Assembly (NCBI GenBank): GCA_017991775.1
Contig: JAGOPV010000002.1
Coordinates: 2,360 to 66,359 of the forward strand
DNA length: 64,000 nt
Source of the DNA: Candidatus Levyibacteriota bacterium
Lineage (GTDB): Bacteria; Patescibacteriota; Microgenomatia; Levybacterales; UBA12049
Direction: 5' to 3'
Shown here in pieces: positions 2,691 to 43,499 of this stretch. Within the stretch, counting starts at the first letter, position 1. Each line of letters opens with the position of its first letter. The notes beneath the pieces were generated by a model, which saw only the letters and a program-made list of their open reading frames with translations, was not told the origin of the DNA and made no database searches. The translations under genes and the position numbers were made by a program.

Positions 2691-2755
2691 GAAGACCTAT
2701 CAACAGATATTCGTCTTGCCTCATTCTGGTAGGCATAGTAGAATCAATATACTCA

Positions 2756-3892: not shown

Positions 3893-3948
3893 AGTACTTG
3901 AGGATAGGGTAGGTTGCTCAAAATGAGTAGCTAGGCTACAATGACTTC

Positions 3949-4740: not shown

Positions 4741-4742
4741 GT

Positions 4743-6966: not shown

Positions 6967-6980
6967 GAATAAGGCTTCGA

Positions 6981-7844
6981 TTGTGTTATTCTAAGATCAT
7001 GGAAGGCTCGATGGATATTGATCTAGGTACACAACTTCAAGGTGTAGAAATTACAGAAGAAGATATTCTTAAAGAACACAAAAATTCTACTGGTCGGTTA
7101 TCTGAATTAGCTAAAAAGTATGAAGCCTATTTTGTTCATGGGCTACACCCATTTGATGAGTTTGGTGGGGTAAATAATAGTAGTATCAAACCAGGGACCA
7201 CATTTCTGGATAGGGCAAGTGTCGTTAGTGATTTGCATCCAACTATCTCTGGTTCCTCAGTTCTACAGCATTCAGCAACTGCAGAGACCTGGTCGCCAAT
7301 AGGTCTAGTTCTAGGCGATGGAGTTATTGAAGATGCCTCACCCAGCGATATGCTTTCTCGCTCCCATTCTCTTTATGATCGTCGTCCTTCGGCTACCTGG
7401 CTTGCTCCTCGAAATCCAGAGCAATATAACACTAAAATAGACACTGCCTTAAAGACAAGGGGGATCCAACCTTATAACGAGCTGATAGTTCAGGGTCCAA
7501 AACCCGCAGGAGTTTATCTAAATCTTGATAGTCTTGCTGCTGATAAAGCAAATGTTTTCGCGCGTCGTAAACCGTCAGAATATGCACTTCAAGAAACATT
7601 TGTCGTTGGTGGGAGACAAATGTCTTATCGAGAACTTGAGGAACTTGGGTCTCAGCTAGGAATGCAGGTATTTGTTTTTGTTGAAGGCAAACTTCGCAGA
7701 ACAACATTTAATGAAGAAAATGGTGGCCTATTAATTGGCGACGTAATTAATGCTGGGGAAGTTGGAGATATAGAGCCTGTACTGACTCCTGAGCAAAGAT
7801 CAGAAATGCATGAAAGGGCAAAATCCTCACTTGCCGCTACTTAG
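6981..7844 (+). CDS. hypothetical protein
   Basis: 287 aa ORF with no motif I recognise. Soluble. Confidence 0.35.
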   Translation: MCYSKIMEGSMDIDLGTQLQGVEITEEDILKEHKNSTGRLSELAKKYEAYFVHGLHPFDEFGGVNNSSIKPGTTFLDRASVVSDLHPTISGSSVLQHSATAETWSPIGLVLGDGVIEDASPSDMLSRSHSLYDRRPSATWLAPRNPEQYNTKIDTALKTRGIQPYNELIVQGPKPAGVYLNLDSLAADKANVFARRKPSEYALQETFVVGGRQMSYRELEELGSQLGMQVFVFVEGKLRRTTFNEENGGLLIGDVINAGEVGDIEPVLTPEQRSEMHERAKSSLAAT

Positions 7845-7866
7845 CAAATATAGATTAATATAAGAT

Positions 7867-8949
7867 ATGAAGGATTCATTGTATGCTTTGGGATTTTCGC
7901 ATTTTGATGGGATAGGTCCGAAGAAATACGCGCTTCTATTACAACGGTTCGGCAATGCAAGAACAGCTTGGAACGCATCAGAGGAAGATCTTTTAAGTGT
8001 TCTTGGAAAGACATTTGGCCCGCGATTTATTGTATTTCGAGATACTTTTGACTTTGGAGTAAAACAAAAAGAATTAGAGAGTACTGGTGCATGGTTTGTG
8101 GATGTTGGAAGTTCTGAGTATCCAAATCTGCTTAAAAAGATTCCAAATCCTCCAATTGTCCTCTTTGGTATTGGTGACAAAACTCTCCTCTCAAGTTTCA
8201 ATGAGCGATATATTGGGATAGTCGGCACAAGAAAGATCACTTCATATGGAATTGATGTGACCACGATGATGGTCGAGGAGCTGGTCCAAAATAATTTTTG
8301 TATTGTTTCAGGCCTTGCCTTGGGTGTCGACGCGTTGGCACATAAAGTTACTTTAGAAAATAGTGGTAGGACTATTGCAGTCCTTGGTTGTGGGGTTGAT
8401 CACTGTTATCCGCAAGAAAATGAAAAGATATATAAAGATATTATAGAGAAGGGAAGTCTGATTATCAGTGAATATCCTCTTGGTGTATCACCAACTCCTG
8501 GATCTTTCCCATCTCGCAATAGGATTATTGCAGGTATCAGTGCTAGTGTACTTGTCACACAAGGTGCTCTGGGGAGCGGGTCACTGATAACCGCGTCAAA
8601 CGCACTGGAATTACACAGACCAGTCTTTGCGGTACCTGGTCCAATTACCTCCTCGCTTTCACAAGGCACAAATGAGCTCTTGAAAGAAGGTGCCATCATG
8701 GTCTCAAATGTTGAAGATATTATGAAGGGTCTTGGAAAGAGTCTGAAAACCTCACAAAAACAGATTGTAAATGGAGATACAGCATCAGAGCAGTCTGTGA
8801 TAGATTTGCTACACGTTCAAGCATATTCTTTCGATGAATTTGTAAAGATCATGCAGCTATCTGTCCAAGAATTAGGTTCGCTCTTATCTGTCATGGAGAT
8901 GAAGGGCTATATAAAGCGAGATGATGAGGGGAATTTTACTCTTATGTAG
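7867..8949 (+). CDS. dprA: DNA-processing protein DprA (Smf)
   Basis: Rossmann-like DprA core GLALGVDALAHK...VLGCGVD...SRNRIIAG...PGPITS. Classic dprA-topA adjacency. Confidence 0.8.
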   Translation: MKDSLYALGFSHFDGIGPKKYALLLQRFGNARTAWNASEEDLLSVLGKTFGPRFIVFRDTFDFGVKQKELESTGAWFVDVGSSEYPNLLKKIPNPPIVLFGIGDKTLLSSFNERYIGIVGTRKITSYGIDVTTMMVEELVQNNFCIVSGLALGVDALAHKVTLENSGRTIAVLGCGVDHCYPQENEKIYKDIIEKGSLIISEYPLGVSPTPGSFPSRNRIIAGISASVLVTQGALGSGSLITASNALELHRPVFAVPGPITSSLSQGTNELLKEGAIMVSNVEDIMKGLGKSLKTSQKQIVNGDTASEQSVIDLLHVQAYSFDEFVKIMQLSVQELGSLLSVMEMKGYIKRDDEGNFTLM

Positions 8950-22022: not shown

Positions 22023-22067
22023 TCTCATTTCGACAGCAGTTTAATGGAGATAATACTCCGTTAGATT

Positions 22068-23660
<1,593 letters not shown>

Positions 23661-24785: not shown

Positions 24786-24857
24786 GGCGCGGTGGCGAAG
24801 CGGTAACGCAGGGGTCTGCAAAACCTCCATGCACGGGTTCGATTCCCGTCCGCGCCT
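24786..24857 (+). tRNA. tRNA-Cys (anticodon GCA)
   Basis: Cloverleaf by eye: acceptor GGCGCGG/CCGCGCC, D-arm GCGAAGCGGTAACGC, anticodon loop CTGCAAA, T-arm ACGGGTTCGATTCCCGT. No encoded CCA. Confidence 0.75.
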
Positions 24858-24897
24858 CTCAAAATTCTTTCAGAATTTTGGCAGAACTTAAATTTAT

Positions 24898-25355: not shown

Positions 25356-25427
25356 GGGTCGTTAGTTCATTGGTAGAACGCTTCACTGATAATGAAGAGG
25401 TGGATAGTCCGATTCTATCACGACCCA
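25356..25427 (+). tRNA. tRNA-Ile (anticodon GAT)
   Basis: Acceptor GGGTCGT/ACGACCC, D-arm GTTCATTGGTAGAAC, anticodon stem CTTCA/TGAAG with loop CTGATAA, T-arm GATAGTCCGATTCTATC, discriminator A. Confidence 0.75.
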
Positions 25428-25466
25428 CCCCGCTTAGCGGGGTGATGACCAGCTTAGCTGGTCCAC

Positions 25467-29228: not shown

Positions 29229-32183
29229 TCAGTTGGTAGCTGCCGACTGTACGCTGTCACCCTGTGCTTCTTTAAATTCTCTCAATAAAAGATTGTAGTC
29301 AAATTGATTGACCTTGCCATCATCATTAAAGTCAGCTTGTGCAAACTGTTCTTGGTTGCAGGCAACAGCAGGGGCGTAGTCGCTATAGCAGCCAATCATG
29401 ATGTTGTAGTCTGCACCATCTAACACGTTGTCGTTATTTGCATCCCCAGCAACGAGTGGGTCAGGAGTAGCTACTGATTCTTCGCCGTTTGAGATTGCAA
29501 TTGGCCCATTTGAAATTTGCTTTGCTAAGTACTTGTTAGCTTGGACAACAACGAGGTATTCATCAGATTCAAAGTCCTTACCTAGATTAGCGCTACCTCT
29601 GTAGACCTGTTCACCTTCAGCATAGATAAATGTTTCGGTCTTTTTTACTACAAGTGCTTTCGTATCTTTGTTGTAGATCATGATATCTGCGAGAATATTT
29701 TTGTTCTCTGGATTTTTATTACTGAGAGAGTTAGCAGTTGGATTGGTACTGTCACCTGCAGATCCAATGCCATCAAGTTTAAGAATTACTTTAAATGTCG
29801 TTGTATTCGGATCAGTCGCAGTTGGAGTAGGAGTCAATGTAGGTGTTGGAGTCAGTGTTGGACTTGGAGTCATAGTCGCAGTTGGAGTGATGGTGATAGT
29901 AACTCCAGGCTTAGGAGTAGCTGTGGGTGTAGGTGTTAGTGTTGGAGTAGGAGTCAATGTAGGTGTTGGAGTCAGCGTTGGTGTAGCAACCGGCTTCTTA
30001 GTTGGAACTGGGGTCTTTGTTGGTGCAATGGTTGGCTTTTTTGTTGGTACAGCAGTAGGTGCTTTTGTAGGAACCTTGGTGGGAGCTGAAGTCACGATCT
30101 TAGTAGGTACAGCTGTAGGCTTCTTCGTTGGAGTTACACAAAGCAAAGGGTTGGCAATACAAGGTCCTGCGAGAGTAGGAGTTGGTTTCTTGGTAGGTGT
30201 CACGCAGAGAAGTGGATTAGCAATACATGGCCCAGATAGCGTTGGTGTAGGCTTCTTTGTTGGAGTAGCTGTAGGCTTCTTCGTAGGCGTTACACAGAGC
30301 AGTGGATTGGCAGTGCATGGTCCAGAGAGAGTCGGAGTGGGAACTTTATAAATTGCAAAATCACGTGTAATATTTTTTGTTGTACCGCCGACGTATGCAC
30401 CAACAATGGTGGTTCCCTGCCAGCCACTTGGAGCTGTGACTTTAACATCGTAGTCACCAGGAGCTAGACTACTGAATTGATATGCCCCTGAGATACCCGT
30501 GGCCACTGTGCGAGATGCAGTTTTGGATAGGCCGATACTTACACCAGAGACCGTTGTTTCAGAAGCATCTTTCACTTTATTCTTATTAGCATCATTGAAG
30601 ACAACGCCTTTGATGATATTGTCACTAGGACCTGCAGTTGAGCGTAGTTTTATTTCTACGTTGACTATCTCCGCAGAATTAATGTTGGCAGGTGGCTTGA
30701 TACCAGTTACAGGGTTATTTGAGACAACCTCATATGTTGAAGGTGGTTCTACTTTTAGCGTATATGAAGTAGAGGTATTCAGGCTTGAGAAGCTGTAAGC
30801 TCCACCGCTTTTTGAGAGCGTACTAGAGGATCCCGTACCCAACTGTGGTGTTAGTACAAGTCTTACATTTTCACCTTCGTAGGCTCGCTTAGCCGTGCCG
30901 CTTACAACGAAGATTGTTCCTTTAACTACTCCAATTCCAGCAGGTTTAGTCGGAGTAGGAGTGGAGGTGCTCGGCTTGATGAGCGTGAAGTTGTATGACT
31001 TTATGCTTGCAGCAGTAGTAAGTGCGATCGCTGCAGAGTTAGATGGAGTAAATCCAGTCTTTGACGCTACGAGGTTGTAAGTACCAGATTTCGGAAGTGT
31101 CAATGTATATGCACCACTTGAATTAGTAGATGAAACAGATTGATCACCAAGCTCTTTTGTCTTGATAGTTACTCCAGATATGATTGCTCCCATCTTATCC
31201 TTCACGGTACCAGTGATCTTGTATGCGACAGGCGTTGGTGTTGTGCAAAGCAAAGGGTTAGCAATACAAGGTCCTGAAAGAGTTGGTGAAGGTGTAACTG
31301 AGCTAGCGAGAGTAAAATTAACAGTTTTTGATGTAGCTGCTGGTGTAAGCGAGATTGTCGAGGTGAGTGCATTGCTGTAGCCTGATTTTTGTGCGAGAAG
31401 GATGAAGGAATATGTGCTTGCTGAGGATGAGAGTGTTAGGGTATATAGACCGTTTGCGTTAGTCTGGGCAAATACATTTGAGTTAGATGTCGCATAGACT
31501 TTTGCACTTCCAACTGGTGAGCCTGCTTTGTCTTTTACAGTCCCAGTTATTCGATATGTTGTAACAACAGGTTTCTTCGTTGGTACTTTTGTAGCTGGAG
31601 GTACAGACGTTGGTAGAGGTTTCTTCGTTGGTACTTTTGTAGCTGGAGGTACAGACGTTGGTAGAGGTTTCTTCGTTGGTACTTTTGTAGCTGGAGGTAC
31701 AGACGTTGGTAGAGGTTTCTTCGTTGGTACTTTTGTAGCTGGAGGTACAGACGTTGGTAGAGGTTTCTTCGTTGGTATAGGCGTAGCAGGTACAGCTGCT
31801 GCGGCTAGGTAGAAGTACTGATTTGCTGTATTTGAAGTTGTTGAGAGGTAAATAGATCGTGATTGGCTGACGCCTCGGGTCGAGCCTGCAGTGATGAAGA
31901 TGTATTTGCCTGTAGTAAACGAGTAGCTGTAGCAGTTGCTTGTTGGATAGACAGTGCTGTAGCCTGAGATTGAAATCCATGGACTACTTCCACCAGATGG
32001 GGGATAGACGCAGACTGAGAATTTAGCGATTGAGATCTTCTGTTGTTGAGTCTGGGCACTTGTTATTGGAGCAAAGCTAGACGATGTGAGGATGATGCTC
32101 AGTATCAATGAGATGGCAAGGACACCTTTTAATGGAACGGAGAATATATTTTTGATCAAAGGAAGGACAGCTGATTTTCTCAT
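29229..32183 (-). CDS. giant repeat-rich cell-surface protein (Cna-B/SdrD-B-like domains, PT-rich linkers, dockerin-like C-terminus)
   Basis: 984 aa. Signal peptide. Repeated YKITGTVKDK...G.Y.L prealbumin-like domains. PT-rich linkers KKPLPTSVPPATKVPT x4 and TLSGPCIANPLLCVTPTKKPTP x4-5. C-terminal DANNDNVLDGADYN ... DFNDDGKVNQFDYN dockerin-type Ca-binding repeats. Confidence 0.6.
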   Translation of the reverse strand: MRKSAVLPLIKNIFSVPLKGVLAISLILSIILTSSSFAPITSAQTQQQKISIAKFSVCVYPPSGGSSPWISISGYSTVYPTSNCYSYSFTTGKYIFITAGSTRGVSQSRSIYLSTTSNTANQYFYLAAAAVPATPIPTKKPLPTSVPPATKVPTKKPLPTSVPPATKVPTKKPLPTSVPPATKVPTKKPLPTSVPPATKVPTKKPVVTTYRITGTVKDKAGSPVGSAKVYATSNSNVFAQTNANGLYTLTLSSSASTYSFILLAQKSGYSNALTSTISLTPAATSKTVNFTLASSVTPSPTLSGPCIANPLLCTTPTPVAYKITGTVKDKMGAIISGVTIKTKELGDQSVSSTNSSGAYTLTLPKSGTYNLVASKTGFTPSNSAAIALTTAASIKSYNFTLIKPSTSTPTPTKPAGIGVVKGTIFVVSGTAKRAYEGENVRLVLTPQLGTGSSSTLSKSGGAYSFSSLNTSTSYTLKVEPPSTYEVVSNNPVTGIKPPANINSAEIVNVEIKLRSTAGPSDNIIKGVVFNDANKNKVKDASETTVSGVSIGLSKTASRTVATGISGAYQFSSLAPGDYDVKVTAPSGWQGTTIVGAYVGGTTKNITRDFAIYKVPTPTLSGPCTANPLLCVTPTKKPTATPTKKPTPTLSGPCIANPLLCVTPTKKPTPTLAGPCIANPLLCVTPTKKPTAVPTKIVTSAPTKVPTKAPTAVPTKKPTIAPTKTPVPTKKPVATPTLTPTPTLTPTPTLTPTPTATPKPGVTITITPTATMTPSPTLTPTPTLTPTPTATDPNTTTFKVILKLDGIGSAGDSTNPTANSLSNKNPENKNILADIMIYNKDTKALVVKKTETFIYAEGEQVYRGSANLGKDFESDEYLVVVQANKYLAKQISNGPIAISNGEESVATPDPLVAGDANNDNVLDGADYNIMIGCYSDYAPAVACNQEQFAQADFNDDGKVNQFDYNLLLREFKEAQGDSVQSAATN
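31570..31770. repeat. perfect 48-bp tandem repeat x4 (encodes KKPLPTSVPPATKVPT) inside the surface-protein gene
   Basis: GGTTTCTTCGTTGGTACTTTTGTAGCTGGAGGTACAGACGTTGGTAGA repeated head-to-tail without mismatches. Confidence 0.85.
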
Positions 32184-32244
32184 AAATACTTTACGACATT
32201 TTTAGCGTATCAAGTGTGCAGAGTAGTGTCAATGAGCTCCGGGT

Positions 32245-32338
32245 ATCAGTTCTCGGTTTTCGGTTTTCAGTCCATTTTGAATACCACCTTGTGGACCGAT
32301 AACTGACAACGGAAAACGGAAAACCGGTGTGCTATACT
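32245..32338 (+). promoter_or_regulatory. leaderless-type promoter module: ATCAGTTCTC-(CGGTTTT)x2 ... inverted AAAACNG repeats ... TATACTGCAA, 6 nt before the ATG
   Basis: ATCAGTTCTCGGTTTTCGGTTTTCAG at 32245-32270, CTGACAACGGAAAACGGAAAACCG at 32303-32326 and TATACT at 32333-32338, with the ATG at 32345. Shares 17-nt exact blocks with the module at 58811-58943. Confidence 0.5.
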
Positions 32339-32344
32339 GCAAAA

Positions 32345-32917
32345 ATGGTGCTATCAGACAGAGATATTAAGGTTCGGCTCAAAAGCAATAGTGTCGTAAT
32401 TAAGCCTGCACCCGATCTTGCTGAGCAGCTCGGAAGTAATTCCATAGATTTGCGTCTCGGGAATATCTTCAGAGTTTTCGATCACAGTAAGTTTGCGTAC
32501 ATTGACCCAACTGACAAGCAAACCTCTCAAGATGTAACTCGAGAAGTAGTTGTTAAGAAGGGTGAGCGCTTTATAATTCAGCCAGGTGATTTTGTCTTAG
32601 GTACTACAATGGAGCATATCGAAGTCCCGGATGATCTTGTCGGGAGTCTCGAAGGTAGATCAAGCATAGGGAGACTTGGAGTTATCATTCATTCAACCGC
32701 AGCCAGTATTGAATGTGGGTTTAGGGGGCATATCACACTAGAGCTTGCGAACATGGGCAAAATGCCAGTTGCGCTTTATCCTGGTATGCGTATCTGTTCA
32801 CTCGCATTCTCTGAGCTATCTTCACCTGCTGAGGTCCCATACTATAAGAAAAAGAATGCTAAGTATGCTGGACAGGAAGGTCCAGGGGAGTCCAAAATCC
32901 ATAAAGAGCTAAAGTAG
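32345..32917 (+). CDS. dcd: dCTP deaminase
   Basis: DLRLGN...GERFIIQPGDFVLGTTMEHIEVPDDLVGSLEGRSSIGRLG...HSTAA.IE.GF.G.ITLEL matches the dcd signature. The ORF-track start at 32327 is a GTG; the ATG at 32345 sits 6 nt after a TATACT box. Confidence 0.75.
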   Translation: MVLSDRDIKVRLKSNSVVIKPAPDLAEQLGSNSIDLRLGNIFRVFDHSKFAYIDPTDKQTSQDVTREVVVKKGERFIIQPGDFVLGTTMEHIEVPDDLVGSLEGRSSIGRLGVIIHSTAASIECGFRGHITLELANMGKMPVALYPGMRICSLAFSELSSPAEVPYYKKKNAKYAGQEGPGESKIHKELK

Positions 32918-32971
32918 TTTGATCTAGAAAATCCTCTTGTTACTCCTCCCATCCTTCACTATACTGACCAA

Positions 32972-33511
32972 ATGATTCTTGGCCCCGAAATACTTCTGAA
33001 GCTAGTTAAGACAAAAAAACTTGTAGAGAATTTGTCAGAGCGTGAACTGACCAACCCAGAAGGTGCGGGCTTCGATTTTAGACTTGGTGAGGTCTATAAA
33101 ATCTCTGGTAAATCTTTCTTAGGTGTGACTGAGCGTCAGACTGCTGATATAGAGTTGGTTGAGAAGTATGTGGAGGGGGAGACTCGCAGTATTACGATCA
33201 AGCCGGGGGATTTTTACCTTGTCAAGACGATTGAGACTGTGAATATGCCAGTTAATTTAACTGCTAACATAAAGCCCCGCTCTACGACATTCAGGAGTGG
33301 TATTTTTCTTCGAACTGGCAATATTGCTCCTGGTTATTCTGGGGGTCTTACGTTTGCATTAAAGAATGAAGGATCCATAAATGTAGTAATTGAGATGGGT
33401 GCCCGTATTATCCATGTGCAGTTTGAAGAAGTTTTAGGGAAAGGCAATAAGTATAGAGGCCAATGGCAGGGTGGAAGAGTCAGCGCTACTAAAAAAGAAA
33501 CACAAGTCTAA
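32972..33511 (+). CDS. dCTP deaminase / dUTPase-family paralog (archaeal-type dUTPase-like)
   Basis: Same jelly-roll family: DFRLGEVY...IKPGDFYLVKTIETVNMP...KPRSTTFRSGIF. Confidence 0.55.
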   Translation: MILGPEILLKLVKTKKLVENLSERELTNPEGAGFDFRLGEVYKISGKSFLGVTERQTADIELVEKYVEGETRSITIKPGDFYLVKTIETVNMPVNLTANIKPRSTTFRSGIFLRTGNIAPGYSGGLTFALKNEGSINVVIEMGARIIHVQFEEVLGKGNKYRGQWQGGRVSATKKETQV

Positions 33512-33512
33512 A

Positions 33513-34388
33513 ATGTCTGCAGAAGTACCTCAACATTCTGCCATAACTACCCCTGTCGATCGGCAACGTCTCCATGATGCATACGCACAGTCCCCAGCAG
33601 GCGAGTACTTATCTCAGCGTGCAAGATATGATGCGTATCGACCAGCAAGCACTTCCGTAGAGGAATGGCAAGATCTCCTCGGAGCAGACGTGAACAATCT
33701 AGACCACATGTTAGTTACTGTTCAAGTTGCTTCAACTTTTTTAAGACTTTCTCGAATGCAGGAGACTCCAAACACATCTTCTCCATTTAGTACAGATGAT
33801 GAAAATGATCTCCTGCTCGCGGCCGCTATCCATGATTGGGGTGAGGGCGTTGAGGGTTGTGAGGATATAACATGGCGAAAAAAGACAAGTGGTGACAATC
33901 TCCGCGAGAGGGATGCAATGCATATCGTTATTCAGGATGTGGCTGCTCGATATTCTGATGATGAAGATGAAAAGGCAGAAGTTCACTCTCAGCTCAAAAG
34001 AGTAGCTGATGAGATCGTATTTAATAAGGAGTCAAGACTAGGTAGAGCGTTCGACGCTATTGAGCGAGTGGGATATTTACGTACTGCAGTTCGCTCCTGG
34101 AGAGAACAAGCCGATGTCAAGAATCCAGACATGATGGATACTCTGCAGTGGATATCGGCAGATGTTCTTGCCCTCCATACAATTCCACTTCTTAGTCATT
34201 CTCAGGATCATTTTCCCGTTCTGGCGATGCTTGCTCAAAATGAGTCATACATATCTGACGCATTTGCATTAATGCCTGACAGTGTTTTTGAGATGTATGA
34301 TGACGATGAGAAAGAGCAGATGCGCGACAAATTTATGGCTGCAAAGTCTGCCTGGGGAAGTCCTGATACAGTAATACATCTTAATTAG
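33513..34388 (+). CDS. HD-domain protein, YfbR-like 5'-deoxynucleotidase candidate
   Basis: NLDHMLVTV ... LAAAIHDWGEGVEGCEDIT resembles the YfbR metal-binding H...HD...D motifs. Start taken at the Met after the preceding stop. Confidence 0.4.
   Translation: MSAEVPQHSAITTPVDRQRLHDAYAQSPAGEYLSQRARYDAYRPASTSVEEWQDLLGADVNNLDHMLVTVQVASTFLRLSRMQETPNTSSPFSTDDENDLLLAAAIHDWGEGVEGCEDITWRKKTSGDNLRERDAMHIVIQDVAARYSDDEDEKAEVHSQLKRVADEIVFNKESRLGRAFDAIERVGYLRTAVRSWREQADVKNPDMMDTLQWISADVLALHTIPLLSHSQDHFPVLAMLAQNESYISDAFALMPDSVFEMYDDDEKEQMRDKFMAAKSAWGSPDTVIHLN
34363..34382. repeat. 20-bp direct repeat, copy 1 (CTGATACAGTAATACATCTT)
   Basis: Exact 20-mer repeated at 36348-36367. The two copies bracket the ASCH + GNAT-ASCH cassette. 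Confidence 0.9.
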
Positions 34389-34409
34389 TTGCTCTGCTAT
34401 AATCTAAAT

Positions 34410-34751
34410 ATGAAAATCCATGAACTAAAACTTGCTACGACACCATTTGAATCAATTAAATCAGGGGGTAAAATAATTGAGTCACGCCTTTTTGATGAGA
34501 GGAGAAAAGAAATTGAGATAGGGGATGAATTGAGGTTTATAAATCGCGATCATCCACAGAGTATTATTCGAGCAAAGGTTATTGATCTTATGAGGTACAG
34601 ATCATTTGAAGAAATGTTTAAAGATAATAACCCGTCAGATTTCGGTGGAGAATCAGTAGATTGGCTTATGAAACAAATTAGAGAATTTTATTCTCCTGAA
34701 GATGAAATGAAAGATGGAGTCCTAGGAATTTTGTTTAAGCTACTTAATTAG
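34410..34751 (+). CDS. ASCH-domain protein (YqfB-like, PUA-like fold)
   Basis: MKIHELKLATTPFESIKSGGKIIESRLFDERR...IGDELRF is the typical ASCH beta-barrel start. Confidence 0.5.
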   Translation: MKIHELKLATTPFESIKSGGKIIESRLFDERRKEIEIGDELRFINRDHPQSIIRAKVIDLMRYRSFEEMFKDNNPSDFGGESVDWLMKQIREFYSPEDEMKDGVLGILFKLLN

Positions 34752-34868
34752 CTACTACTATATACCCCAAAATTTTTACTTAGAATTGTAATCTATCCCA
34801 TAATATGATATATTTCAGATCTTACTTTTAGTGGCAATCACTGCCACACTCGAGAAAAGGAGAGCACC

Positions 34869-36215
34869 TTGTCTGTACTATCGGTCGAAAATGGAATCTC
34901 TGTTCGCAAAGCATGCGATGAGGATTTCGAATGGGTTGCAAATCTCATGGAGGTGGCATTAGCCCCCTACTACGGAGGCGACCACCGGGCACATGCTCGG
35001 AGGATTTTCGATACTCACATTCATGGAGGGATTGACTACGTCGGTCATTTCTCGGCAGGACAACATATGTTTGTTGCCGAGGCTGAAGGTAAGAAAGTCG
35101 GTCTGATTCATCTGGTTGAAAAAAAGCAGGCAACTGTTAAAATCAGCCCGTTGATCGTGGACCCGGAGTTCCAGGGGGTACTTGGAGTTGGTAGCGTTCT
35201 TCTAGCGTATGCGGAAGTATTCGCAGATGAGTTAGGCGCTCGTCAACTCTACTGTACTGTCGCAAGTCCGAATAAATTAGCACTGAAGTTCTTTCTCAAA
35301 AAAGGCTTCAGAATCACAGGAACTGCGAAGGATCATTACAAGTTGGGAGTCGATGAGCACATGCTTTACAAGCAGCTTGTTGATGATCAGGGGATGACTG
35401 CTCCAAACGTTTCTGTTGTACCATTCGATGCTGAAAAGCACTCCGATGGTGTTCGCCGCCTTGTGCTAGAAGGCCTTACGGGCAATTTCCTTGGCGTCGA
35501 TGACGACTGGGTTGATGCTCTATACGAGGGATATAAGCGAAGGGGCAGCGACGACATCAATACAAAGTACAAGATCATCTTTGTCGCCGAGAGTGGCGGT
35601 GAGGTCATGGGGGTCGCTGGCGCGACGCCTAAGAAAGGAGATCCAATTAAACTGATGCCTCTTGTTGCAGCGAATGAAGCTGCATTTGAGGCGTTGATCA
35701 TTGATCTTCAAGGTCTCTTGATGGACTACGGTCATAAGCTGTACGTTCATCTTGTTCCGGAAGCATGGCAAATTGCCTGTCTTCAACGTCACGGATGGAT
35801 TCTTGAGGGTGTGTTCCCAGGTGGGTATGCACCAACAAGCGTCGTACAACAATGGGGTCATACCCTAAAACAGGAGGGATCTGCAGTGAGAACTATGCGA
35901 ATCAAACGACCCTACTACGACCTCATCATGAGTCGCAAGAAGACTCTCGAGGTACGTGTTGGGTACGACAGCATCAGGAGGATCGAGGTCGGAGACAAAA
36001 TCCGTCTCGAAACCTCTCAAGTTTCTGGCATGATTCAGGTCGAAGCCATTCGGACATACAAGAGCTTTCGCAGCATGTTGGATGTTGAGCCATGGCAGCA
36101 GATCGTGCCGGATGTCCAGGATCGTGTAGAGGCTCTCAGGAAGCTCGAGGAGATCTATCCCGCGCCAAAAGAAGCGCTGGGAGTATATGTCTTTGAGATT
36201 GCTGTTAGTAAGTAA
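34869..36215 (+). CDS. GNAT-GNAT-ASCH fusion protein (tandem acetyltransferase domains plus C-terminal ASCH domain), GC-rich
   Basis: The GNAT core is VGLIHLVEKKQATVKISPLIVDPEFQGVLGVGSVLL...GFRITG. A second acetyltransferase-fold domain follows. The C-terminal MRIKRPYYDLIMSRKKTLEVRVGYDSIRRIEVGDKIRLET... is ASCH-like. GC is well above the window average. Confidence 0.55.
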   Translation: MSVLSVENGISVRKACDEDFEWVANLMEVALAPYYGGDHRAHARRIFDTHIHGGIDYVGHFSAGQHMFVAEAEGKKVGLIHLVEKKQATVKISPLIVDPEFQGVLGVGSVLLAYAEVFADELGARQLYCTVASPNKLALKFFLKKGFRITGTAKDHYKLGVDEHMLYKQLVDDQGMTAPNVSVVPFDAEKHSDGVRRLVLEGLTGNFLGVDDDWVDALYEGYKRRGSDDINTKYKIIFVAESGGEVMGVAGATPKKGDPIKLMPLVAANEAAFEALIIDLQGLLMDYGHKLYVHLVPEAWQIACLQRHGWILEGVFPGGYAPTSVVQQWGHTLKQEGSAVRTMRIKRPYYDLIMSRKKTLEVRVGYDSIRRIEVGDKIRLETSQVSGMIQVEAIRTYKSFRSMLDVEPWQQIVPDVQDRVEALRKLEEIYPAPKEALGVYVFEIAVSK

Positions 36216-36347
36216 TCAAACCTAGCGAGAATCGCATTCTCGATTGGCAATAGCCAGTAAATATGCGAGTGTCCTGGATCATGACACTGAAGCCACTGAG
36301 CTTCAAAAAACTGATCCGCTTTTTTTTAAAAATTCGGCTATTCATCA

Positions 36348-36367
36348 CTGATACAGTAATACATCTT
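36348..36367. repeat. 20-bp direct repeat, copy 2 (CTGATACAGTAATACATCTT)
   Basis: Exact match to 34363-34382. Confidence 0.9.
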
Positions 36368-36378
36368 GAAAAAGAGGT

Positions 36379-37368
36379 GTGAAAGAGTTACAAACTAACT
36401 GCATGAGTTCATCTCAAAAACATCCAGAATACGCATATCTAGACCTCATCGAAGAAGTTCTTAAGACTGGTATTAAGAATGTCGATCGTGGCACAGGAGC
36501 TGTTTCATATAGTCATTTTGGACGACAAATTCGCTTTGATCTTTCCAAAGGCTTCCCACTTCTCACCACAAAGAAAGTTTACTGGAAAGGAGTACTTCAT
36601 GAGCTCGCGTGGTTTATGAAAGGGGACTCAAATATTAAATATCTTGTCGATAATAACGTTCATATTTGGGATGACTATCCATACAAGATTTTTAAGGAAA
36701 AAAATAAAACCTCAAAAGTCACAAAAGAAGAATTCATTGAAAAGATCGCAAGCAATAATGCATTCGCAAAGAAATGGGGTAATCTTGCGCATATTTATGG
36801 TGAGAGCTGGAGACGTTGGCCTACAGGGACTGCTCGGGTAATAGATCAGCTCCGATGGGTCGTAAATGAGTTGACGGATGATCCTGATGCGAGAAATGCA
36901 ATAGTGACATCGTGGGATCCAAAATATCTTTACTCAATGGCGCTTAAGAAAGACGCAAATCGATTCCCCATTTGTCATAACATGTATCACGTCAGTATTA
37001 AGGATGGCAAGCTTTATCTGCAGCTTTATCAAAGAAGTGCTGATCTTTTTCTTGGAGTGCCTTTCAATATCGCGAGTTATGCATTGCTGACAATTATTCT
37101 TGCGAGAGTGCTGAAATTGGAGCCGGGAGAATTTATTCATACATTCGGCGATGCGCATATTTATGAGAACCACATTGAGCAAGTAAAAGAGCAGCTAACT
37201 CGCAAGCCAAAGCCTCTCCCAACTCTCATTTTAGATAAAAAAATAACTGATATTGATAATTTTAAGCCAGAGCTAGTCACGCTTGAAGGATATGATCCGC
37301 ATCCAGGTCTCAAGGGCGAATTAACAGTCGCCGGGGGCTTCTTCGAGAAGAAGAGAAAGAAGTCCTGA
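36379..37368 (+). CDS. thyA: thymidylate synthase (ThyA, with a roughly 50-aa insertion and a basic C-terminal tail)
   Basis: Catalytic Cys in PICHNMYH, YQRSADLFLGVPFNIASYALL, GDAHIYENH and the EGYDPHPG.K C-terminus. Confidence 0.85.
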   Translation: MKELQTNCMSSSQKHPEYAYLDLIEEVLKTGIKNVDRGTGAVSYSHFGRQIRFDLSKGFPLLTTKKVYWKGVLHELAWFMKGDSNIKYLVDNNVHIWDDYPYKIFKEKNKTSKVTKEEFIEKIASNNAFAKKWGNLAHIYGESWRRWPTGTARVIDQLRWVVNELTDDPDARNAIVTSWDPKYLYSMALKKDANRFPICHNMYHVSIKDGKLYLQLYQRSADLFLGVPFNIASYALLTIILARVLKLEPGEFIHTFGDAHIYENHIEQVKEQLTRKPKPLPTLILDKKITDIDNFKPELVTLEGYDPHPGLKGELTVAGGFFEKKRKKS

Positions 37369-37385
37369 GGATACATTAGTTATTT

Positions 37386-37856
37386 ATGCACGAGAATCAT
37401 CCAAATGAAGGCGAGCAGGTAATACCTACTGTGGCGGCAGTAATATTTTGTGATGGAAAAGTTCTCTTAGTAACACATGGAGAAGGATCTGGACATGTAA
37501 ATGGAGTTATGGGCTTGCCTTCTGGCCATGTAGAGGATGGAGAGGGAGAATTAGTTGCGGCAATTCGAGAGATTCAGGAAGAGACGGGACTTCTCGTAGA
37601 CAAAAGCTCAATCCATGAGTTTGAAGGAAATTATTTTATTGCAAAAATATTGAGAAAAGACGGTGTGACACGGACGTACGGATGGCGGGTTTATAAGGTG
37701 GAGGATTTTGAAGGGAAAATAAATGAAGGGAGTGAGGAAGTAATTCCTCAATGGGTATCTATTCAAGAAATAACTGCTTTGGATGCGGAAGGTAAACTGT
37801 TGCCAAATGTATCAACGGCTATAAATAATGCATTGAAGTCAAAGGTGACGAATTAA
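37386..37856 (+). CDS. NUDIX hydrolase
   Basis: Nudix box GHVEDGEGELVAAIREIQEETGL. Confidence 0.7.
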   Translation: MHENHPNEGEQVIPTVAAVIFCDGKVLLVTHGEGSGHVNGVMGLPSGHVEDGEGELVAAIREIQEETGLLVDKSSIHEFEGNYFIAKILRKDGVTRTYGWRVYKVEDFEGKINEGSEEVIPQWVSIQEITALDAEGKLLPNVSTAINNALKSKVTN

Positions 37857-37857
37857 C

Positions 37858-38427
37858 ATGAATACTCCTCGAATAAGTATCATAGTGGCGATGTCTGACA
37901 ATCGTGTTATCGGGAGCAAGGGTGAGATACCTTGGAATATACCTGGGGAGCAGAAAAGAGTTCGAGATATCACCACCCCTCATCCTCTGATCATGGGTCG
38001 AAAAACGCATGTGTCGATTGGACGGATTCTCCCAAATAGGCTTAATATCGTAGTGACTTCTGACAAGAATTATAAAGTTGAAGGCGGAGAGGTTGCGCAC
38101 TCTTTAAATGAGGCTATAGAGATTGCTGCAAGTTCAGAATCTCACCGTTATTCTTCGAGCGAAGAGATAGAACGAGAAGTTACATCTGATGATAGTTCTC
38201 GTTTCACTCGAACAATAAATCCTGAGTCAGAGATATTTATTTTTGGTGGGGGTAAATTATATGAGCAAGCAATGGATATTGTAGATCGCCTATACCTGAC
38301 TATCGTTCATAAGGAAGTAGAAGGGGATGCATTTTTCCCAGAATATTCAGAATTTACAAAAGAGATAGAACGAGAAGAGAAAGAATTTGAAGGATTGAAA
38401 TATACCTATCTCACTTTGGAACGTTAA
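37858..38427 (+). CDS. folA: dihydrofolate reductase (with an acidic insertion)
   Basis: ISIIVAMSDNRVIGSKGEIPW ... LIMGRKTHVSIGRILPNRLNIVVTSD ... IFIFGGGKLYE. Confidence 0.75.
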   Translation: MNTPRISIIVAMSDNRVIGSKGEIPWNIPGEQKRVRDITTPHPLIMGRKTHVSIGRILPNRLNIVVTSDKNYKVEGGEVAHSLNEAIEIAASSESHRYSSSEEIEREVTSDDSSRFTRTINPESEIFIFGGGKLYEQAMDIVDRLYLTIVHKEVEGDAFFPEYSEFTKEIEREEKEFEGLKYTYLTLER

Positions 38428-40040: not shown

Positions 40041-40574
40041 TTAGAAAAGTATTCCTGCTAGCGCAAGTGCGGCGATGACCCCCGAGGCATGAATTTCCCC
40101 TGATTTTATTTTCTGTTTGATTTCATCTGGGGTAAAAAGCTTTGTGGATGAGATTGACTCTGTTGCTTCATGCTCAGTTGGTCCTGGAGTGATGTTACGT
40201 GCTCGTATTATATGTGCACTGTGGCAGTCTTTGGATGGATAGTCGTTAAGAATCCCTAGCTCCTCAAAGTTTTCCGCGATATATCCTGTCTCCTCACGAA
40301 GCTCTTTCGTTGCATTCTCAAGAATGGTTTCATTGCTTTCGATGTGGCCAGCAGGGAGTGTCCAGATTTTCTGATTGATTGCATATTTATATTCTTTGAT
40401 CATCACGACTTTTCCGTCTGGATCTGTAGCTACAATCATAGAGAAGTCAGGTTTTTTAACGACCGTATAGTCAGGGATCTTTGTGCCATTTGGCAACTCG
40501 ACCTCGTCCTCAAAGACAGTAACAAATTTTGACTCATACCCAACTTTTCGATTAATACGTTTCCAGTTGTTCAT
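40041..40574 (-). CDS. NUDIX hydrolase (ADP-ribose pyrophosphatase-like)
   Basis: Nudix box GHIESNETILENATKELREETGY. Confidence 0.65.
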   Translation of the reverse strand: MNNWKRINRKVGYESKFVTVFEDEVELPNGTKIPDYTVVKKPDFSMIVATDPDGKVVMIKEYKYAINQKIWTLPAGHIESNETILENATKELREETGYIAENFEELGILNDYPSKDCHSAHIIRARNITPGPTEHEATESISSTKLFTPDEIKQKIKSGEIHASGVIAALALAGILF

Positions 40575-40577
40575 AGT

Positions 40578-43499
40578 TTAGTTCGGAGCGACTTCTTGCC
40601 AGATGTAGGTTGGAATTCTCAAGAATTCTGGCGCATTGAGGATCATATCTGGTCTGTCATTTATAGTAAAGGATGGATACTGGAGATTGCCACTATCGCA
40701 CAGCGTCCTGTTGTTCTGGAATGACCCACCAGTTCTTGCTGCATTAACTGCGATTGACCCCTGCATATTGAGCTGAAGATCAGGCGTTCCTAGAGTACAA
40801 TCTGCTGCTGTCTCAATAATAAAGTTCTTGTCAGTACTGATAAATCCATCTATGTTCGCATTTGCTGGTGCAGGGCAGCTGGCTGCTCGACCGACCGTGC
40901 TTGCAACAGAGATATCATCTGCGACAGAGAAGGTAGCTGTTGAAGTATTAGGGACATCGACATCGCCAGCTATTCTGAGCTCTCCATTAATAAGAATCAC
41001 AAAGTCTCTATTGGCTGGAAGCGATGATGTTCCAGTGAGTGTCACATCTCCATTGGCTTGGTAGACGCCATTGGCTAGAGTATTTGGGAGTGTGCAGCTA
41101 CTTAGGTTTGGGCACACAGTCGTTAGATTGATTGGTGTGATATTGGACTGTCTGATGACTGATTGGAAGTATGCATATGATGTCTCACTTCCAGAGCTGT
41201 TATGAGCGGTGAATATTTCTTTGTAGTTATTGCTGCCGATGACCCAGTTGGTGCTACTCGCGCTTCCAGAGTGGAAACTCGCAGTCGTAGCGCCAGAGAA
41301 TGCGATACCTGGTGCTGAGCCTGTGCCAGGAACGAGGGTATAGGCTCCGCCACAAGCTGCATTTGGCGATGCGGGGACAGGATTATTGATACCGCCATCC
41401 ATTCGGATATCAAGTCCTCCAGTCTGGATCCACGACTGTCCTGCATCCACTGCGAAATCGAGATCTTCAAGGCTCAGGCCATTGCATTGACCGCCTGGTG
41501 TGGGAGTGCCTGGAGCACAACCAGATCCTACTGTGGCACTAAATGAAGGGGGTGTCGTATTTTGGGGGTGGACCATATAAAAGCCGTTGGGGAGTCCGCC
41601 ATATCGAACAGTGTACGTGCCGTTGATCAAATTTTCCATAGAGTAGGTGCCATCGTTGTTATTGACCTTGTATGCTTTGGGCCTGCCCGCGATGTCTTGG
41701 ATGCTGACATTTGGATTTGCGGCGATATTAAGCTCAGCACCATTTGAAGCTTTGAGCTTGTCTCCGTTGGTATCAAGAAAAGCATTGCCTTTGATCGTGT
41801 ATGCGCCGAATAACTTGAAGTTCTGGCCAGGAACGCTCGCACAATTGGTGATAGTGAGTTGACGTGGGGCAGTGTCTAAGTTGACATACCCATTAGGCTT
41901 ACTCACATCGACGAAGTAGTTACCAGGCGAAAGGTTTTGGATAGAGTATCGTCCGTCGCTAGCTGTAGTGGCCTCTTTCTCGTCCTGACCCGTCGTGAAG
42001 ACACGTCTTCCGGCGATAGGGAAGTCTTTCGTGCTGTCATAAGAGCCATTTTTGTCTGAGTCGACATAGACACGACCAGTGAGAGTACAGACTTCATTTA
42101 TGCCGATATTCTCAGTAAATGTAGTAGGCCCATCCAGACCCACACTTGCAGCAGGGCTGACTGTGATGGTGCTACTTGGGAATGCTACATAGCCAGTTGG
42201 TACTGCGATGCTGATCGTGTAAGCTCCTGCTCTCATGTTATTAAAGTTATATACTCCCTGAGAGTTTGTTGTCGTTGTTTTATCAGTCGGACCACTCGCA
42301 GTAACGGTGATGTCATTCATGCCATCTGTCTCATCTGCTTCTTTGATGCCATTGCGATTGTTATCAACGAAGATAGTTCCAGTGAGCTTGTGAAGTGGTA
42401 CGACAGCGAACTCACAAGTCCAGTCTGGAGAGAGATTGGTAACACAAGTTGTGCCTGTAGTCCATGCTGCACTACCATTTTTGACTCCGATTGTTTTCCA
42501 GCCATCATTAGCCTCAGCATCAGAGAGCATCATGCGATAGTGCCCATCCATTCTGTAATCGAAGTCTGCATATCCATCAGCTGCTGTTGCTACGGACTTG
42601 ATGTGAGTTTCAAAACCTGATTCTGAAGTCACGTTTTCATCGAGTGTGATGGTGATATCTTTCTTGGATCTATCACCAGTATTTTTACACTGTCCATTCT
42701 CTCCCTTGTCATTGCAAACATATGATTCTACATGCGCACGGACATTGTATCCAACACCCATTTCGTTATTTGAGTAGTTTGATTCTGAGCCTGCATTGGC
42801 ATAATTTGCTCGTGCAAGCATGGTATATCTTCCTGCACCTGTTAGGAGAAATGACTTTGGAGATGTGAGCTGAGCTTGATTGGTCCCTCCATTCCACGCT
42901 TCATATGTTCTCGATGAGCCAGCGCTAAATGGGCTGCCCATTGTAGCTGTAGTATAGTTGTTGTTGCGATCATCCTGATCTTGGTAGATTCGAGTATAGT
43001 AGGTCAGCCAAGAGCTCACAGCTGCATTATTCCTAACGACTATATGTGGATACACTCTATCGCCCACCTTAAAATAGCTAGGCTTGACCCCTGTATTATC
43101 TCTAGGACTGATATCAGTCACATCAAAATCTGGCGGGATAGGGGTGGGGGTGGGTGGGATAGGAGTTGCTGTCGGAACAAAACAGTTGACACCGCAGTAA
43201 CTACCACAACCTACGTTGCAAGTTTCAGCTACTGAGTAAGAGTCGCTACAATATTGAGCACAAGGATTCGGAGCAGGTGGTCTGCAAATGGCATTTGAAT
43301 CAGCATTACTTAGGCATTGGTTTGGTGCACGACCACCTGGTGGGCCACTATCAAAACACATGCATCCCCATACCCTTGGATCTGCATTACTATATGTGCA
43401 ATATAGGTAAGAAATGCAGTTTACTTGAGCATGTGCTCTTGAAATAAATTGTACGAAGAAAAATGCTAAGAAAAAGATTATAAATTTAAATACTTTCAT
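40578..43499 (-). CDS. large secreted Cys-rich surface protein with SdrD-B/Cna-B-like Ca-binding domains
   Basis: 973 aa. Signal peptide MKVFKFIIFFLAFFFVQFISRAHA. Cys-rich N-terminal module. GTIFVDNNRNGIKEADETDG...GVYNF domains. C-terminal beta-rich region. Confidence 0.55.
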   Translation of the reverse strand: MKVFKFIIFFLAFFFVQFISRAHAQVNCISYLYCTYSNADPRVWGCMCFDSGPPGGRAPNQCLSNADSNAICRPPAPNPCAQYCSDSYSVAETCNVGCGSYCGVNCFVPTATPIPPTPTPIPPDFDVTDISPRDNTGVKPSYFKVGDRVYPHIVVRNNAAVSSWLTYYTRIYQDQDDRNNNYTTATMGSPFSAGSSRTYEAWNGGTNQAQLTSPKSFLLTGAGRYTMLARANYANAGSESNYSNNEMGVGYNVRAHVESYVCNDKGENGQCKNTGDRSKKDITITLDENVTSESGFETHIKSVATAADGYADFDYRMDGHYRMMLSDAEANDGWKTIGVKNGSAAWTTGTTCVTNLSPDWTCEFAVVPLHKLTGTIFVDNNRNGIKEADETDGMNDITVTASGPTDKTTTTNSQGVYNFNNMRAGAYTISIAVPTGYVAFPSSTITVSPAASVGLDGPTTFTENIGINEVCTLTGRVYVDSDKNGSYDSTKDFPIAGRRVFTTGQDEKEATTASDGRYSIQNLSPGNYFVDVSKPNGYVNLDTAPRQLTITNCASVPGQNFKLFGAYTIKGNAFLDTNGDKLKASNGAELNIAANPNVSIQDIAGRPKAYKVNNNDGTYSMENLINGTYTVRYGGLPNGFYMVHPQNTTPPSFSATVGSGCAPGTPTPGGQCNGLSLEDLDFAVDAGQSWIQTGGLDIRMDGGINNPVPASPNAACGGAYTLVPGTGSAPGIAFSGATTASFHSGSASSTNWVIGSNNYKEIFTAHNSSGSETSYAYFQSVIRQSNITPINLTTVCPNLSSCTLPNTLANGVYQANGDVTLTGTSSLPANRDFVILINGELRIAGDVDVPNTSTATFSVADDISVASTVGRAASCPAPANANIDGFISTDKNFIIETAADCTLGTPDLQLNMQGSIAVNAARTGGSFQNNRTLCDSGNLQYPSFTINDRPDMILNAPEFLRIPTYIWQEVAPN

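Follow-up and report, generated by a model that had tools for sequence, protein, structure and literature searches.

The deoxypyrimidine operon of a Candidatus Levybacteria strain, contained in a 64-kb stretch of DNA (the window, in what follows), is interrupted by a compact two-gene cassette located between the gene for a divergent HD/YfbR-like hydrolase and thyA (Table 1). The first cassette gene encodes a small stand-alone ASCH protein and the second a large fusion of two GNAT domains and one ASCH domain, and both are accompanied by promoter-like sites and structured RNA elements, with one copy of a perfect 20-bp direct repeat on either side of the whole. By Pfam, the surrounding operon consists of DCD, a DCD/dUTPase-like gene, HD, thyA, NUDIX, DHFR and SHMT, as a first-pass annotation of the same DNA had listed. 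The “HD” label of that list stands in part: the window protein (291 amino acids, aa) has no Pfam or NCBIfam match of its own, and is HD/YfbR-like solely through the annotations of distant homologues.

Table 1. Features of the cassette and of the host genes on both sides of it (window positions; nt, nucleotides; UTR, untranslated region).
Feature	Positions	Strand	Evidence or remarks
HD/YfbR-like hydrolase gene, divergent, host	33513-34388	+	82-98% identical homologues in empty-site contigs
Direct repeat, copy 1	34363-34382	+	native 3' end of the HD gene, the insertion target; L059 2624-2643 aligns to both copies
Inserted foreign DNA	34383-36347	+	1965 bp (1985 bp with one repeat copy); blastn breakpoints against L059-L062, junction sequences
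Extended -10 promoter TGCTATAAT	34395-34403	+	TG at 34395; ends 6 nt before the small-gene ATG
Stand-alone ASCH protein, 113 aa, PH0355/PF0455 type	34410-34751	+	Pfam PF04266, E 3.9e-8; octapeptide GGKIIESR (GxKxxExR)
Promoter-like site of the large gene	34786-34814	+	TTGTAA-17-TATATT with upstream TG; promoter scan
5'UTR structure of the large gene	34825-34864	+	inner hairpin 34831-34836/34842-34847 within outer helix 34825-34829/34855-34859
Fusion protein GNAT1-GNAT2-ASCH, 448 aa	34869-36215	+	Pfam, AlphaFold, Foldseek, 33-sequence family alignment
Structured 3' RNA element, ~117 nt, five helices	36216-36332	+	covariance model 83.7 bits; fold z-score -3.8
Direct repeat, copy 2	36348-36367	+	duplicated target; thyA ribosome-binding site and start downstream of it are untouched
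thyA, host	36379-37368	+	Pfam Thymidylat_synt, E 8e-95; GTG start

The repeat, CTGATACAGTAATACATCTT, is present in exactly two copies and nowhere else in the 64-kb window, where a search that allowed up to three mismatches revealed no third copy. None of 100 shuffles gave the same two-match outcome, so that a chance match is indeed negligible, as had been stated in the first-pass annotation. Copy 1 lies at the 3' end of the HD gene as described there, but copy 2 ends 11 nt before the GTG of thyA and not 12 bp before the gene. By tracing homologues of the window HD protein to their contigs, the empty site was found in four related contigs (L059-L062, with HD proteins that are 98, 89, 82 and 82% identical), in which the HD gene runs into thyA. 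All four read CCTGATACAGTAATACATCTTgaaaaagag and contain a single copy of the 20-mer. In L059-L061 the junction continues with gtgtgaaagag, such that the HD stop codon overlaps the GTG of thyA (GTGTGA), while L062 has gaaaaagagagctgaaagag at this place. In blastn alignments L059 1-2643 corresponds to window 31740-34382 and L059 2624-3634 to window 36348-37358, with the 20 bases 2624-2643 being shared by both. The single 20-mer of the empty sites and the blastn breakpoints indicate that 1985 bp were inserted into the window DNA and 20 bp of the target duplicated, and the proposal that the repeats are a duplication left by insertion is thus confirmed by the empty sites of the related loci. Upon insertion the ancestral C-terminus of the HD protein (...HLEKEV*, as read in L059-L062) was changed to ...HLN*, with loss of EKEV and gain of N, and the altered reading frame closes neatly with AAT TAG. 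L002, an assembly obtained independently and 99.7% identical over 5.7 kb, has both junctions too, which makes an assembly chimera unlikely. Since the filled site is seen in the window strain and L002 only, while empty sites are found across relatives down to 82% identity, insertion in the window lineage is the parsimonious direction. The inserted DNA reaches from 12 nt 5' of the TG of the extended -10 promoter (15 nt 5' of TATAAT) to ~15 nt beyond the 3' RNA/terminator element, and is exactly one functional unit, promoter to terminator.

Host and cassette point to two different lineages. Topoisomerase I (TopA) of the window is 100% identical to a Candidatus Levybacteria protein, and its next relatives are from Levybacteria or Patescibacteria; related Levybacteria have this operon with no cassette in it. 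TM7-specific probe sites have no match in the 16S rRNA gene of the window, which fits a host outside Saccharibacteria, though as a lead only; the host was settled by TopA. In the databases, 890 proteins of ~447 aa are related to the 448-aa protein with 65-74% identity, and all 120 of those listed have its architecture. Among 50 loci retrieved from GTDB with one genome per species, nearly all are labelled Saccharibacteria, Nanosynbacter or Microsaccharimonas, and the exceptions carry generic labels or are short, apparently mis-binned contigs. From the Levybacteria host and the Saccharibacteria family of its cassette it follows that a Saccharibacteria module was acquired by the Levybacterium, in agreement with the horizontal origin claimed earlier. 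The closest sampled relative (L003) is only 73% identical, so that the actual donor lies outside the sampled genomes. Insertion and horizontal transfer can be considered established, and the empty and filled sites, the exact breakpoints and the donor clade together document a recent gene transfer between two Patescibacteria lineages. The base composition contributes nothing to this conclusion. The GC content of the large open reading frame (ORF) is indeed above the window average as reported (0.49 and 0.42, respectively, with 0.34 for the small gene), but the large gene exceeds its neighbours by ~10 GC points and by 0.2-0.4 in GC at third codon positions (GC3) in every lineage. As this offset is family-wide, high GC is no evidence of recent transfer, and its use as a sign of acquisition was rejected. 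In the Saccharibacteria loci L003-L057, GC3 of the large gene is 0.68-0.87 and that of the neighbours 0.3-0.6, while the small gene is at or below background.

For the small ASCH protein, the family alignment and the position of the promoter favour the ATG at 34410 (113 aa) over a TTG at 34389 (120 aa). Its Pfam ASCH score (34.3 bits) and that of the fused domain (36.3 bits) are both well above the cut-off of 21.2, and its best solved relatives, from sequence matches only, are 2z0t, 1s04 and 1xne. The TTG start of the 448-aa ORF is supported by the conservation of its N-terminal residues. Within the large protein, Pfam recognises a GNAT domain at residues 61-147 (E 1.9e-13) and an ASCH domain at residues 344-445 (E 1e-8), and an AlphaFold model (predicted local distance difference test score, pLDDT, 79.6) places GNAT1 at ~10-169, GNAT2 with full GNAT topology at ~182-330 and the ASCH barrel at ~341-446. 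GNAT1 scores 51.1 bits with Acetyltransf_1 (cut-off 20.7) and reaches the end of the profile. Its acetyl-CoA loop (QGVLGVG; family consensus RGxLGIG) exceeds the canonical R/Q-x-x-G-x-G/A spacing by one residue. GNAT2 has no Pfam match and carries a glycine-free VAANEAAFEAL at the position of the loop, with the GNAT topology being assigned by the predicted fold; in the 33-sequence alignment it has invariant motifs of its own, namely GATPKKGxPIKLMPL and EGVFPGGYAP. Foldseek ranked tandem-GNAT proteins first (2wpw, 5kgh, 3tt2, 9en3), followed by single GNATs of SpeG/Ard1 type, and aligned the fused ASCH domain with PH0355 (2z0t) at a TM score of 0.88, a root-mean-square deviation of 1.7 and 30% identity. 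By sequence, both ASCH domains are closest to PF0469, PF0455 and PH0355, and they are 25% identical to each other. K358, E361 and R363 of the fused domain are invariant in the 33 family sequences, and its octapeptide, RKKTLEVR in the window protein, is G-x-K-T-L-E-V-R in 90% or more of the family members. The ASCH plus GNAT-GNAT-ASCH architecture of the first-pass annotation is therefore upheld, for GNAT1 and both ASCH domains by Pfam, with the catalytic Lys/Glu/Arg kept in the two ASCH domains, and for GNAT2 by the predicted fold only. All NCBIfam matches to either cassette protein are below cut-off, without a curated equivalog, and the PADLOC models match neither of the two.

The non-coding parts of the cassette are conserved as well. 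A TGnTATAAT box is found 6-9 nt before the small-gene ATG in the window and in L003, L005, L010, L011, L017 and L021, and no Shine-Dalgarno sequence is present before the small gene; the lack of this sequence and the nearness of the promoter to the ATG suggest that the small-gene mRNA is leaderless. Other loci have a TGnTATAAT box at a position equivalent to that of the large-gene promoter site. Downstream of this site, the outer helix of the 5'UTR structure is formed by CCUAUCC with the Shine-Dalgarno GGAAGG, and in the window and L003 by CUUUU with AAAAG, while the inner hairpin occurs with six different stem sequences in which pairing is kept. Across 18 loci 91% of the cells are paired and nine of 12 pairs show compensatory changes, which was equalled in none of 500 shuffles; in this MAFFT alignment the rows of the window and L003 are shifted by one column, and their pairs were read by eye. 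The predicted structure can occlude the Shine-Dalgarno region of the large gene. The 3' element is supported by 25 sequences, with 95.6% of the cells paired, 18 of 30 pairs compensatory and again none of 500 shuffles as good, whereas controls slid along the sequence reach at most 42% paired. Frequent G-U pairs indicate that it is an RNA of the plus strand. Its outer helix is followed by a U-run, and a candidate pseudoknot involves two of the five helices, so the element is predicted to be a complex intrinsic terminator that may contain a pseudoknot. A simple terminator scan of the cassette found nothing, as is explained by a terminator stem that encloses another hairpin. The covariance model of the element gave 47 matches in 569 kb, one per locus and always directly 3' of the large gene, and none in the loci with empty sites. 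Neither the plus strand of 36216-36340 nor that of 34819-34868 has a match in Rfam, even at E-values up to 10, and at gathering and E-value thresholds the non-coding parts of the cassette are likewise unmatched. A sub-clade (L064 6351-6560, L066 6354-6560 and L067 2492-2700) has a different conserved, apparently structured 3' region in place of the modelled element, which contains CCUGGAnAUCCAGG together with a CAUGGGGUG...ACCCCAUG pairing over a long range and is possibly a second RNA motif. In oral Nanosynbacter loci (L027 7684-8711 and equivalents) two NUDIX genes follow the module and the last 3' RNA helix and terminator are replaced, and in L046 and L052 a deletion joins a shortened 3' RNA element to the 3' part of a NUDIX gene.

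Wherever a locus includes enough sequence on the 5' side, the small ASCH gene (112 aa) precedes the large one by ~90-120 bp, but the surroundings of the pair differ from locus to locus. A census of three genes on each side in ~40 loci yielded 112 distinct proteins and 128 Pfam families, none of them seen more than three times; genes of nucleotide house-cleaning (HD, Tmk, NT5C, NUDIX, Ham1, HIT) recur mildly and inconsistently. Since the neighbourhoods vary in native Saccharibacteria and the cassette is an autonomous transcription unit, a link to dCTP metabolism is unsupported. The suggestion that embedding among dCTP-handling genes points to a role in N4-acyl-deoxycytidine chemistry thus fails on the variety of the neighbours and on the cassette's own promoters and terminator, and the position in the deoxypyrimidine operon looks like an incidental result of insertion, with no functional link. 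An exhaustive profile search returned 75 clusters at E<1e-30, including forms with an unassigned N-terminal extension, tandem-GNAT-only forms and one form with a MazG-like C-terminus. The N-terminal extensions of 110-180 aa in longer homologues were considered as a fused small ASCH protein, which was rejected because a hidden Markov model of the small ASCH matches only their C-terminal ASCH domain. The MazG-like form (P0334) is a tandem-GNAT relative whose C-terminus weakly resembles, below the gathering score, a nucleotide pyrophosphohydrolase instead of ASCH, and another protein (P0415, 370 aa) has three tandem ASCH domains.

Traces of insertion are also seen elsewhere in the family. In L023 the module lies between an intact tRNA-Tyr gene and an exact 27-bp copy of its 3' end, and in L011 between tRNA-Trp and a 21-bp copy (one mismatch) of the tRNA 3' end, with a nearer degenerate copy in addition. 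In L015 and L026 the module directly follows tRNA-Leu and tRNA-Glu, respectively, and in L067 a flanking repeat of 31 bp is 87% identical. The flanking duplications of the window, L011 and L023 indicate that the unit inserted more than once, with duplications of 20-27 bp. The window cassette contains no transposase or integrase, its only two ORFs being the enzymes, and no inverted repeat joins its two ends; among the neighbours of the module in L011 and L023 there is no tyrosine or serine recombinase. Phage carriage is restricted to one match among 2.9 million viral contigs, in which the module is at the contig edge beside RecE/RecT/SSB genes. In L063, an oral Saccharibacteria contig from IMG/VR, a prophage-like block (region 2735-8591) with genes for a RecE-like exonuclease, for RecT and SSB and for a Holliday-junction resolvase starts ~1.7 kb downstream of the module. 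The unit resembles the islets found at tRNA ends and integron cassettes in being a ~2-kb promoter-to-terminator unit between direct repeats with a structured 3' end, and the repeats of L011 and L023 are duplicated tRNA 3' ends, as in such islets. By contrast, the target in the window is the 3' end of a protein-coding gene and no integrase is present in or near the unit. The 3' element differs from an integron attC site in being, by its G-U pairs, a plus-strand RNA and not an attC-like DNA site, and unlike transposons the cassette has neither transposase nor terminal inverted repeats, while its duplication of 20-27 bp exceeds usual target duplications. We infer that insertion took place through a trans-acting or recombinase-independent process that duplicates 20-27 bp, for which staggered-break fill-in, single-crossover integration of a circular copy and replicative template switching are candidates. 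A target duplication of such unusual length without a recombinase gives the insertion an interest of its own.

The nearest described kind of system is the predicted (PIN)-GNAT-EVE operon, which almost always encodes an adjacent stand-alone ASCH protein (Iyer et al. 2013; Bell et al. 2020, PMC7641849) and is uncharacterised, with modified bases of RNA or DNA as its predicted targets (PMC7641849). Both have a GNAT with a C-terminal PUA-like domain of the modified-base-binding kind and a separate small ASCH next door. However, the fused domain of the cassette is ASCH (PF04266), with no EVE match in the Pfam scan, its GNAT is tandem, and it lacks a PIN domain and an AAA_17 ATPase. Furthermore, the cassette is not associated with restriction-modification systems or prophages, its neighbours being mostly housekeeping genes apart from one prophage-adjacent copy, and its family is mainly confined to Saccharibacteria, highly conserved and equipped with dedicated RNA elements. 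With respect to the ASCH domains, the amidohydrolases of this fold comprise a GKTR type (YqfB) and a GKER type (TthASCH, Pyrococcus Pku1/3/5/6 and EOLA1). Proteins of the latter type, including those of Pyrococcus, deacetylate N4-acetylcytidine (ac4C) both in tRNA and as the free nucleoside, with Lys and Glu being essential (bioRxiv 10.64898/2026.02.27.708502). The cassette domains keep Lys, Glu and Arg of the octapeptide and an aromatic residue nine positions before the Lys (Tyr14/Lys23 in TthASCH), but one of them is fused to a tandem GNAT, as is no characterised ASCH. Tandem-GNAT acetyltransferases such as the clavulanate-pathway protein 2wpw, the glucosamine N-acetyltransferase of C. acetobutylicum (5kgh), the histidine N-acetyltransferase 9en3 and the Eis-like 2ozg, share with the cassette protein two successive GNAT folds, only one of which has a canonical acetyl-CoA loop; the sequence identity is 11-15%, and none has an ASCH domain. 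TmcA and NAT10/Kre33 combine a GNAT catalytic domain with an RNA-binding module, and their product would be the substrate of an ASCH eraser, but this is an analogy only: the Pfam scan of the cassette revealed no helicase/ATPase (DUF1726), GNAT_acetyltr_2 or tRNA-binding domain, and the protein is not a homologue.

Taken together, the cassette is probably an autonomous Saccharibacteria module, inserted incidentally near thyA, that encodes a regulated acetylation/deacetylation pair of cytidine type. The module reached the Levybacteria chromosome in one piece, where the HD gene ends just upstream of thyA in its last codons, together with its own predicted signals, that is, the extended -10 promoter of the small ASCH gene, a second promoter, a 5'UTR that would sequester the Shine-Dalgarno sequence and the 3' RNA/terminator. 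GNAT1 is predicted to mediate acetyl-CoA-dependent N-acetylation of an amine, with GNAT2 serving as a degenerate substrate-binding partner, as in other tandem-GNAT enzymes, while the fused and the stand-alone ASCH domains would bind or hydrolyse amides of N4-acyl-cytosine type through their Lys/Glu/Arg set. The likeliest role may be the regulated acetylation and deacetylation of cytidine in RNA (tRNA) or of scavenged cytosine nucleosides. That both activities are directed at cytidine-type substrates is plausible, but should be regarded as tentative. Several observations weigh against this scheme. In the large protein of the window the Gly of the octapeptide is replaced by Arg. GNAT1 matches generic models alone (SpeG, RimI-like), all below the NCBIfam cut-offs, which leaves a small molecule or a protein as a possible acceptor. 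Joined in one protein, an acetyltransferase and an active deacetylase would run a futile cycle unless their substrates differ or one of them is regulatory. Flanking repeats are found in only three to four of ~35 distinct loci, and there is no recombinase, terminal inverted repeat or att-like core to explain the 20-bp duplication. The mild recurrence of HD, Tmk, NT5C, NUDIX, Ham1 and HIT neighbours also leaves some room for a role at the nucleotide level.

The cargo is a highly conserved Saccharibacteria enzyme pair in which an acetyltransferase is combined with the domain family that erases ac4C from tRNA, and hence a concrete candidate for a bacterial writer and eraser, or for ac4C salvage in obligate nucleotide scavengers. 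The cassette promoters, the 5'UTR structure and the 3' RNA are new here, and the two RNA structures, which are not in Rfam, offer handles on regulation; as Saccharibacteria are now genetically tractable, such ideas are directly testable. The 3' RNA contains a GNRA-type loop, and the loop of its first hairpin, which is similar to an anticodon loop, has an almost invariant CGCA. A bolder and decidedly improbable variant would see the cassette as an RNA-assisted cytidine acetylation/deacetylation system in the form of a recombinase-less mobile element, with the 3' RNA as cofactor, decoy substrate or autoregulatory target, and with transfer from one Patescibacteria lineage to another by a process that duplicates 20-27 bp of target, such as the Campbell-type integration of a circularised cassette acquired through natural competence.

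One alternative, which we consider unlikely, is a toxin-antitoxin or conflict module of the (PIN)-GNAT-EVE plus ASCH kind. In such a system the large protein would serve as a toxin or defence effector that acetylates aminoacyl-tRNA or a modified nucleic acid, and would be neutralised or regulated by the small ASCH. This suits a mobile cassette of two genes that extends from promoter to terminator and begins with the smaller gene, the prediction of (PIN)-GNAT-EVE operons with a stand-alone ASCH as toxin-antitoxin or defence systems (PMC7641849), and the GmrSD fragments, IS1595/Replic_Relax genes and prophage near some copies. However, neither protein matches a PADLOC model, no consistent defence-island context is seen across loci, the C-terminal domain is ASCH and not EVE, and just one match, at a contig edge, was obtained among the viral contigs. 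Furthermore, the module is present as one copy per locus and is conserved like TopA (65-73%, compared with ~66%) across a phylum-level clade, which is atypical of toxin-antitoxin or defence genes.

Functional integration with the dcd/dut/HD/thyA/nudix/folA/glyA cluster, in which the cassette would make or salvage N4-acyl-deoxycytidine nucleotides or modify DNA, is likewise unlikely. The insertion does sit in a deoxypyrimidine operon, a NUDIX gene was also gained beside thyA in the same strain, some native contexts contain HD, thymidylate kinase, NT5C, NUDIX, Ham1 or HIT genes, and the one distant relative with a weak MazG-like domain at the ASCH position (below the gathering score) fits this idea. 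On the other hand, the neighbourhoods are unrelated and variable in ~40 Saccharibacteria loci, close Levybacteria relatives have the same operon and no cassette, and the cassette brings promoters of its own, with a terminator that, if it affects the operon at all, would disrupt it. Identity between the gained NUDIX and the one by the nearest donor-like locus (L003) is only 33%, so that arrival of the gained NUDIX from the same donor as the cassette was rejected.

An equally improbable alternative is the detoxification or metabolism of small molecules, with the tandem GNAT acetylating an amine metabolite or a nucleoside antibiotic and the ASCH proteins hydrolysing N4-acyl-cytosine antibiotics or scavenged ac4C. 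The large protein would then be a tandem-GNAT enzyme like Eis, MshD or the glucosamine and histidine N-acetyltransferases. Its best fold matches are tandem-GNAT small-molecule acetyltransferases and SpeG, and NCBIfam reveals a weak similarity to streptothricin and aminosugar acetyltransferases. In addition, ASCH enzymes of YqfB type reportedly hydrolyse diverse N4-acylcytosines, and Saccharibacteria are nucleotide scavengers that live on Actinobacteria. All of the similarities are, however, of the general kind expected of any GNAT fold, a resistance gene would not usually have two conserved RNA structures and tight post-transcriptional control, and tRNA is a substrate of such ASCH domains in vitro. 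An assembly artefact, in which foreign sequence was linked in through a de Bruijn graph loop at a 20-mer common to both, is very improbable: the source is a metagenome assembly and 20 is k-1 for k = 21, a commonly used smallest k-mer, but identical junctions occur in a second assembly that differs at ~0.3% of positions, a chance 20-mer common to two unrelated genomes is negligible, the HD frame closes neatly around a unit that is exactly promoter to terminator, and analogous flanking duplications of 21-27 bp are found in other assemblies.

Further differences between the window and its relatives were noted in and around the operon. In L002 (1779-2664) residues 1-62 and 66-294 of the HD protein are matched in different frames; the gene is frameshifted or mis-assembled there, so that it may be decaying after the insertion. 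The NUDIX gene at 37386-37856 (156 aa; region 37359-37857) separates thyA from folA and weakly matches PDC-S07, a candidate model of PADLOC (E 1.6e-9). It is missing in the closest empty-site relatives, L059 and L060, where folA starts ~17 nt after thyA; it is a second strain-specific insertion in the operon, without a flanking repeat. In the DHFR gene, a Ser/Glu-rich inner segment of ~33 codons (38131-38229) is not found in L060, the Pfam DHFR match is in two stretches, and an exact 18-bp direct repeat, AAGAGATAGAACGAGAAG, is present at 38162-38179 and 38360-38377. A minus-strand NUDIX gene at 40041-40574 has 77% DNA identity to L059 between flanks of 93-97%, and L059 has an extra Asp/Glu racemase gene at the junction 40574-40578; this locus (~40041-40578) looks like a hotspot for gene flux and for the replacement of alleles.

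Farther upstream in the window, a 16S rRNA gene (22067-23659, 1593 nt) is followed ~1.1-1.7 kb downstream by tRNA-Cys (24786-24858) and tRNA-Ile (25356-25429), with no 23S rRNA gene within the 64 kb. At 29229-32183 the minus strand encodes a Pro/Thr-rich surface-type protein of 984 aa, in which tandem repeats of 48 bp (e.g., 31582-31729) encode PTKKPLPTSVPPATKV, with a copy number that may differ from that of related contigs.

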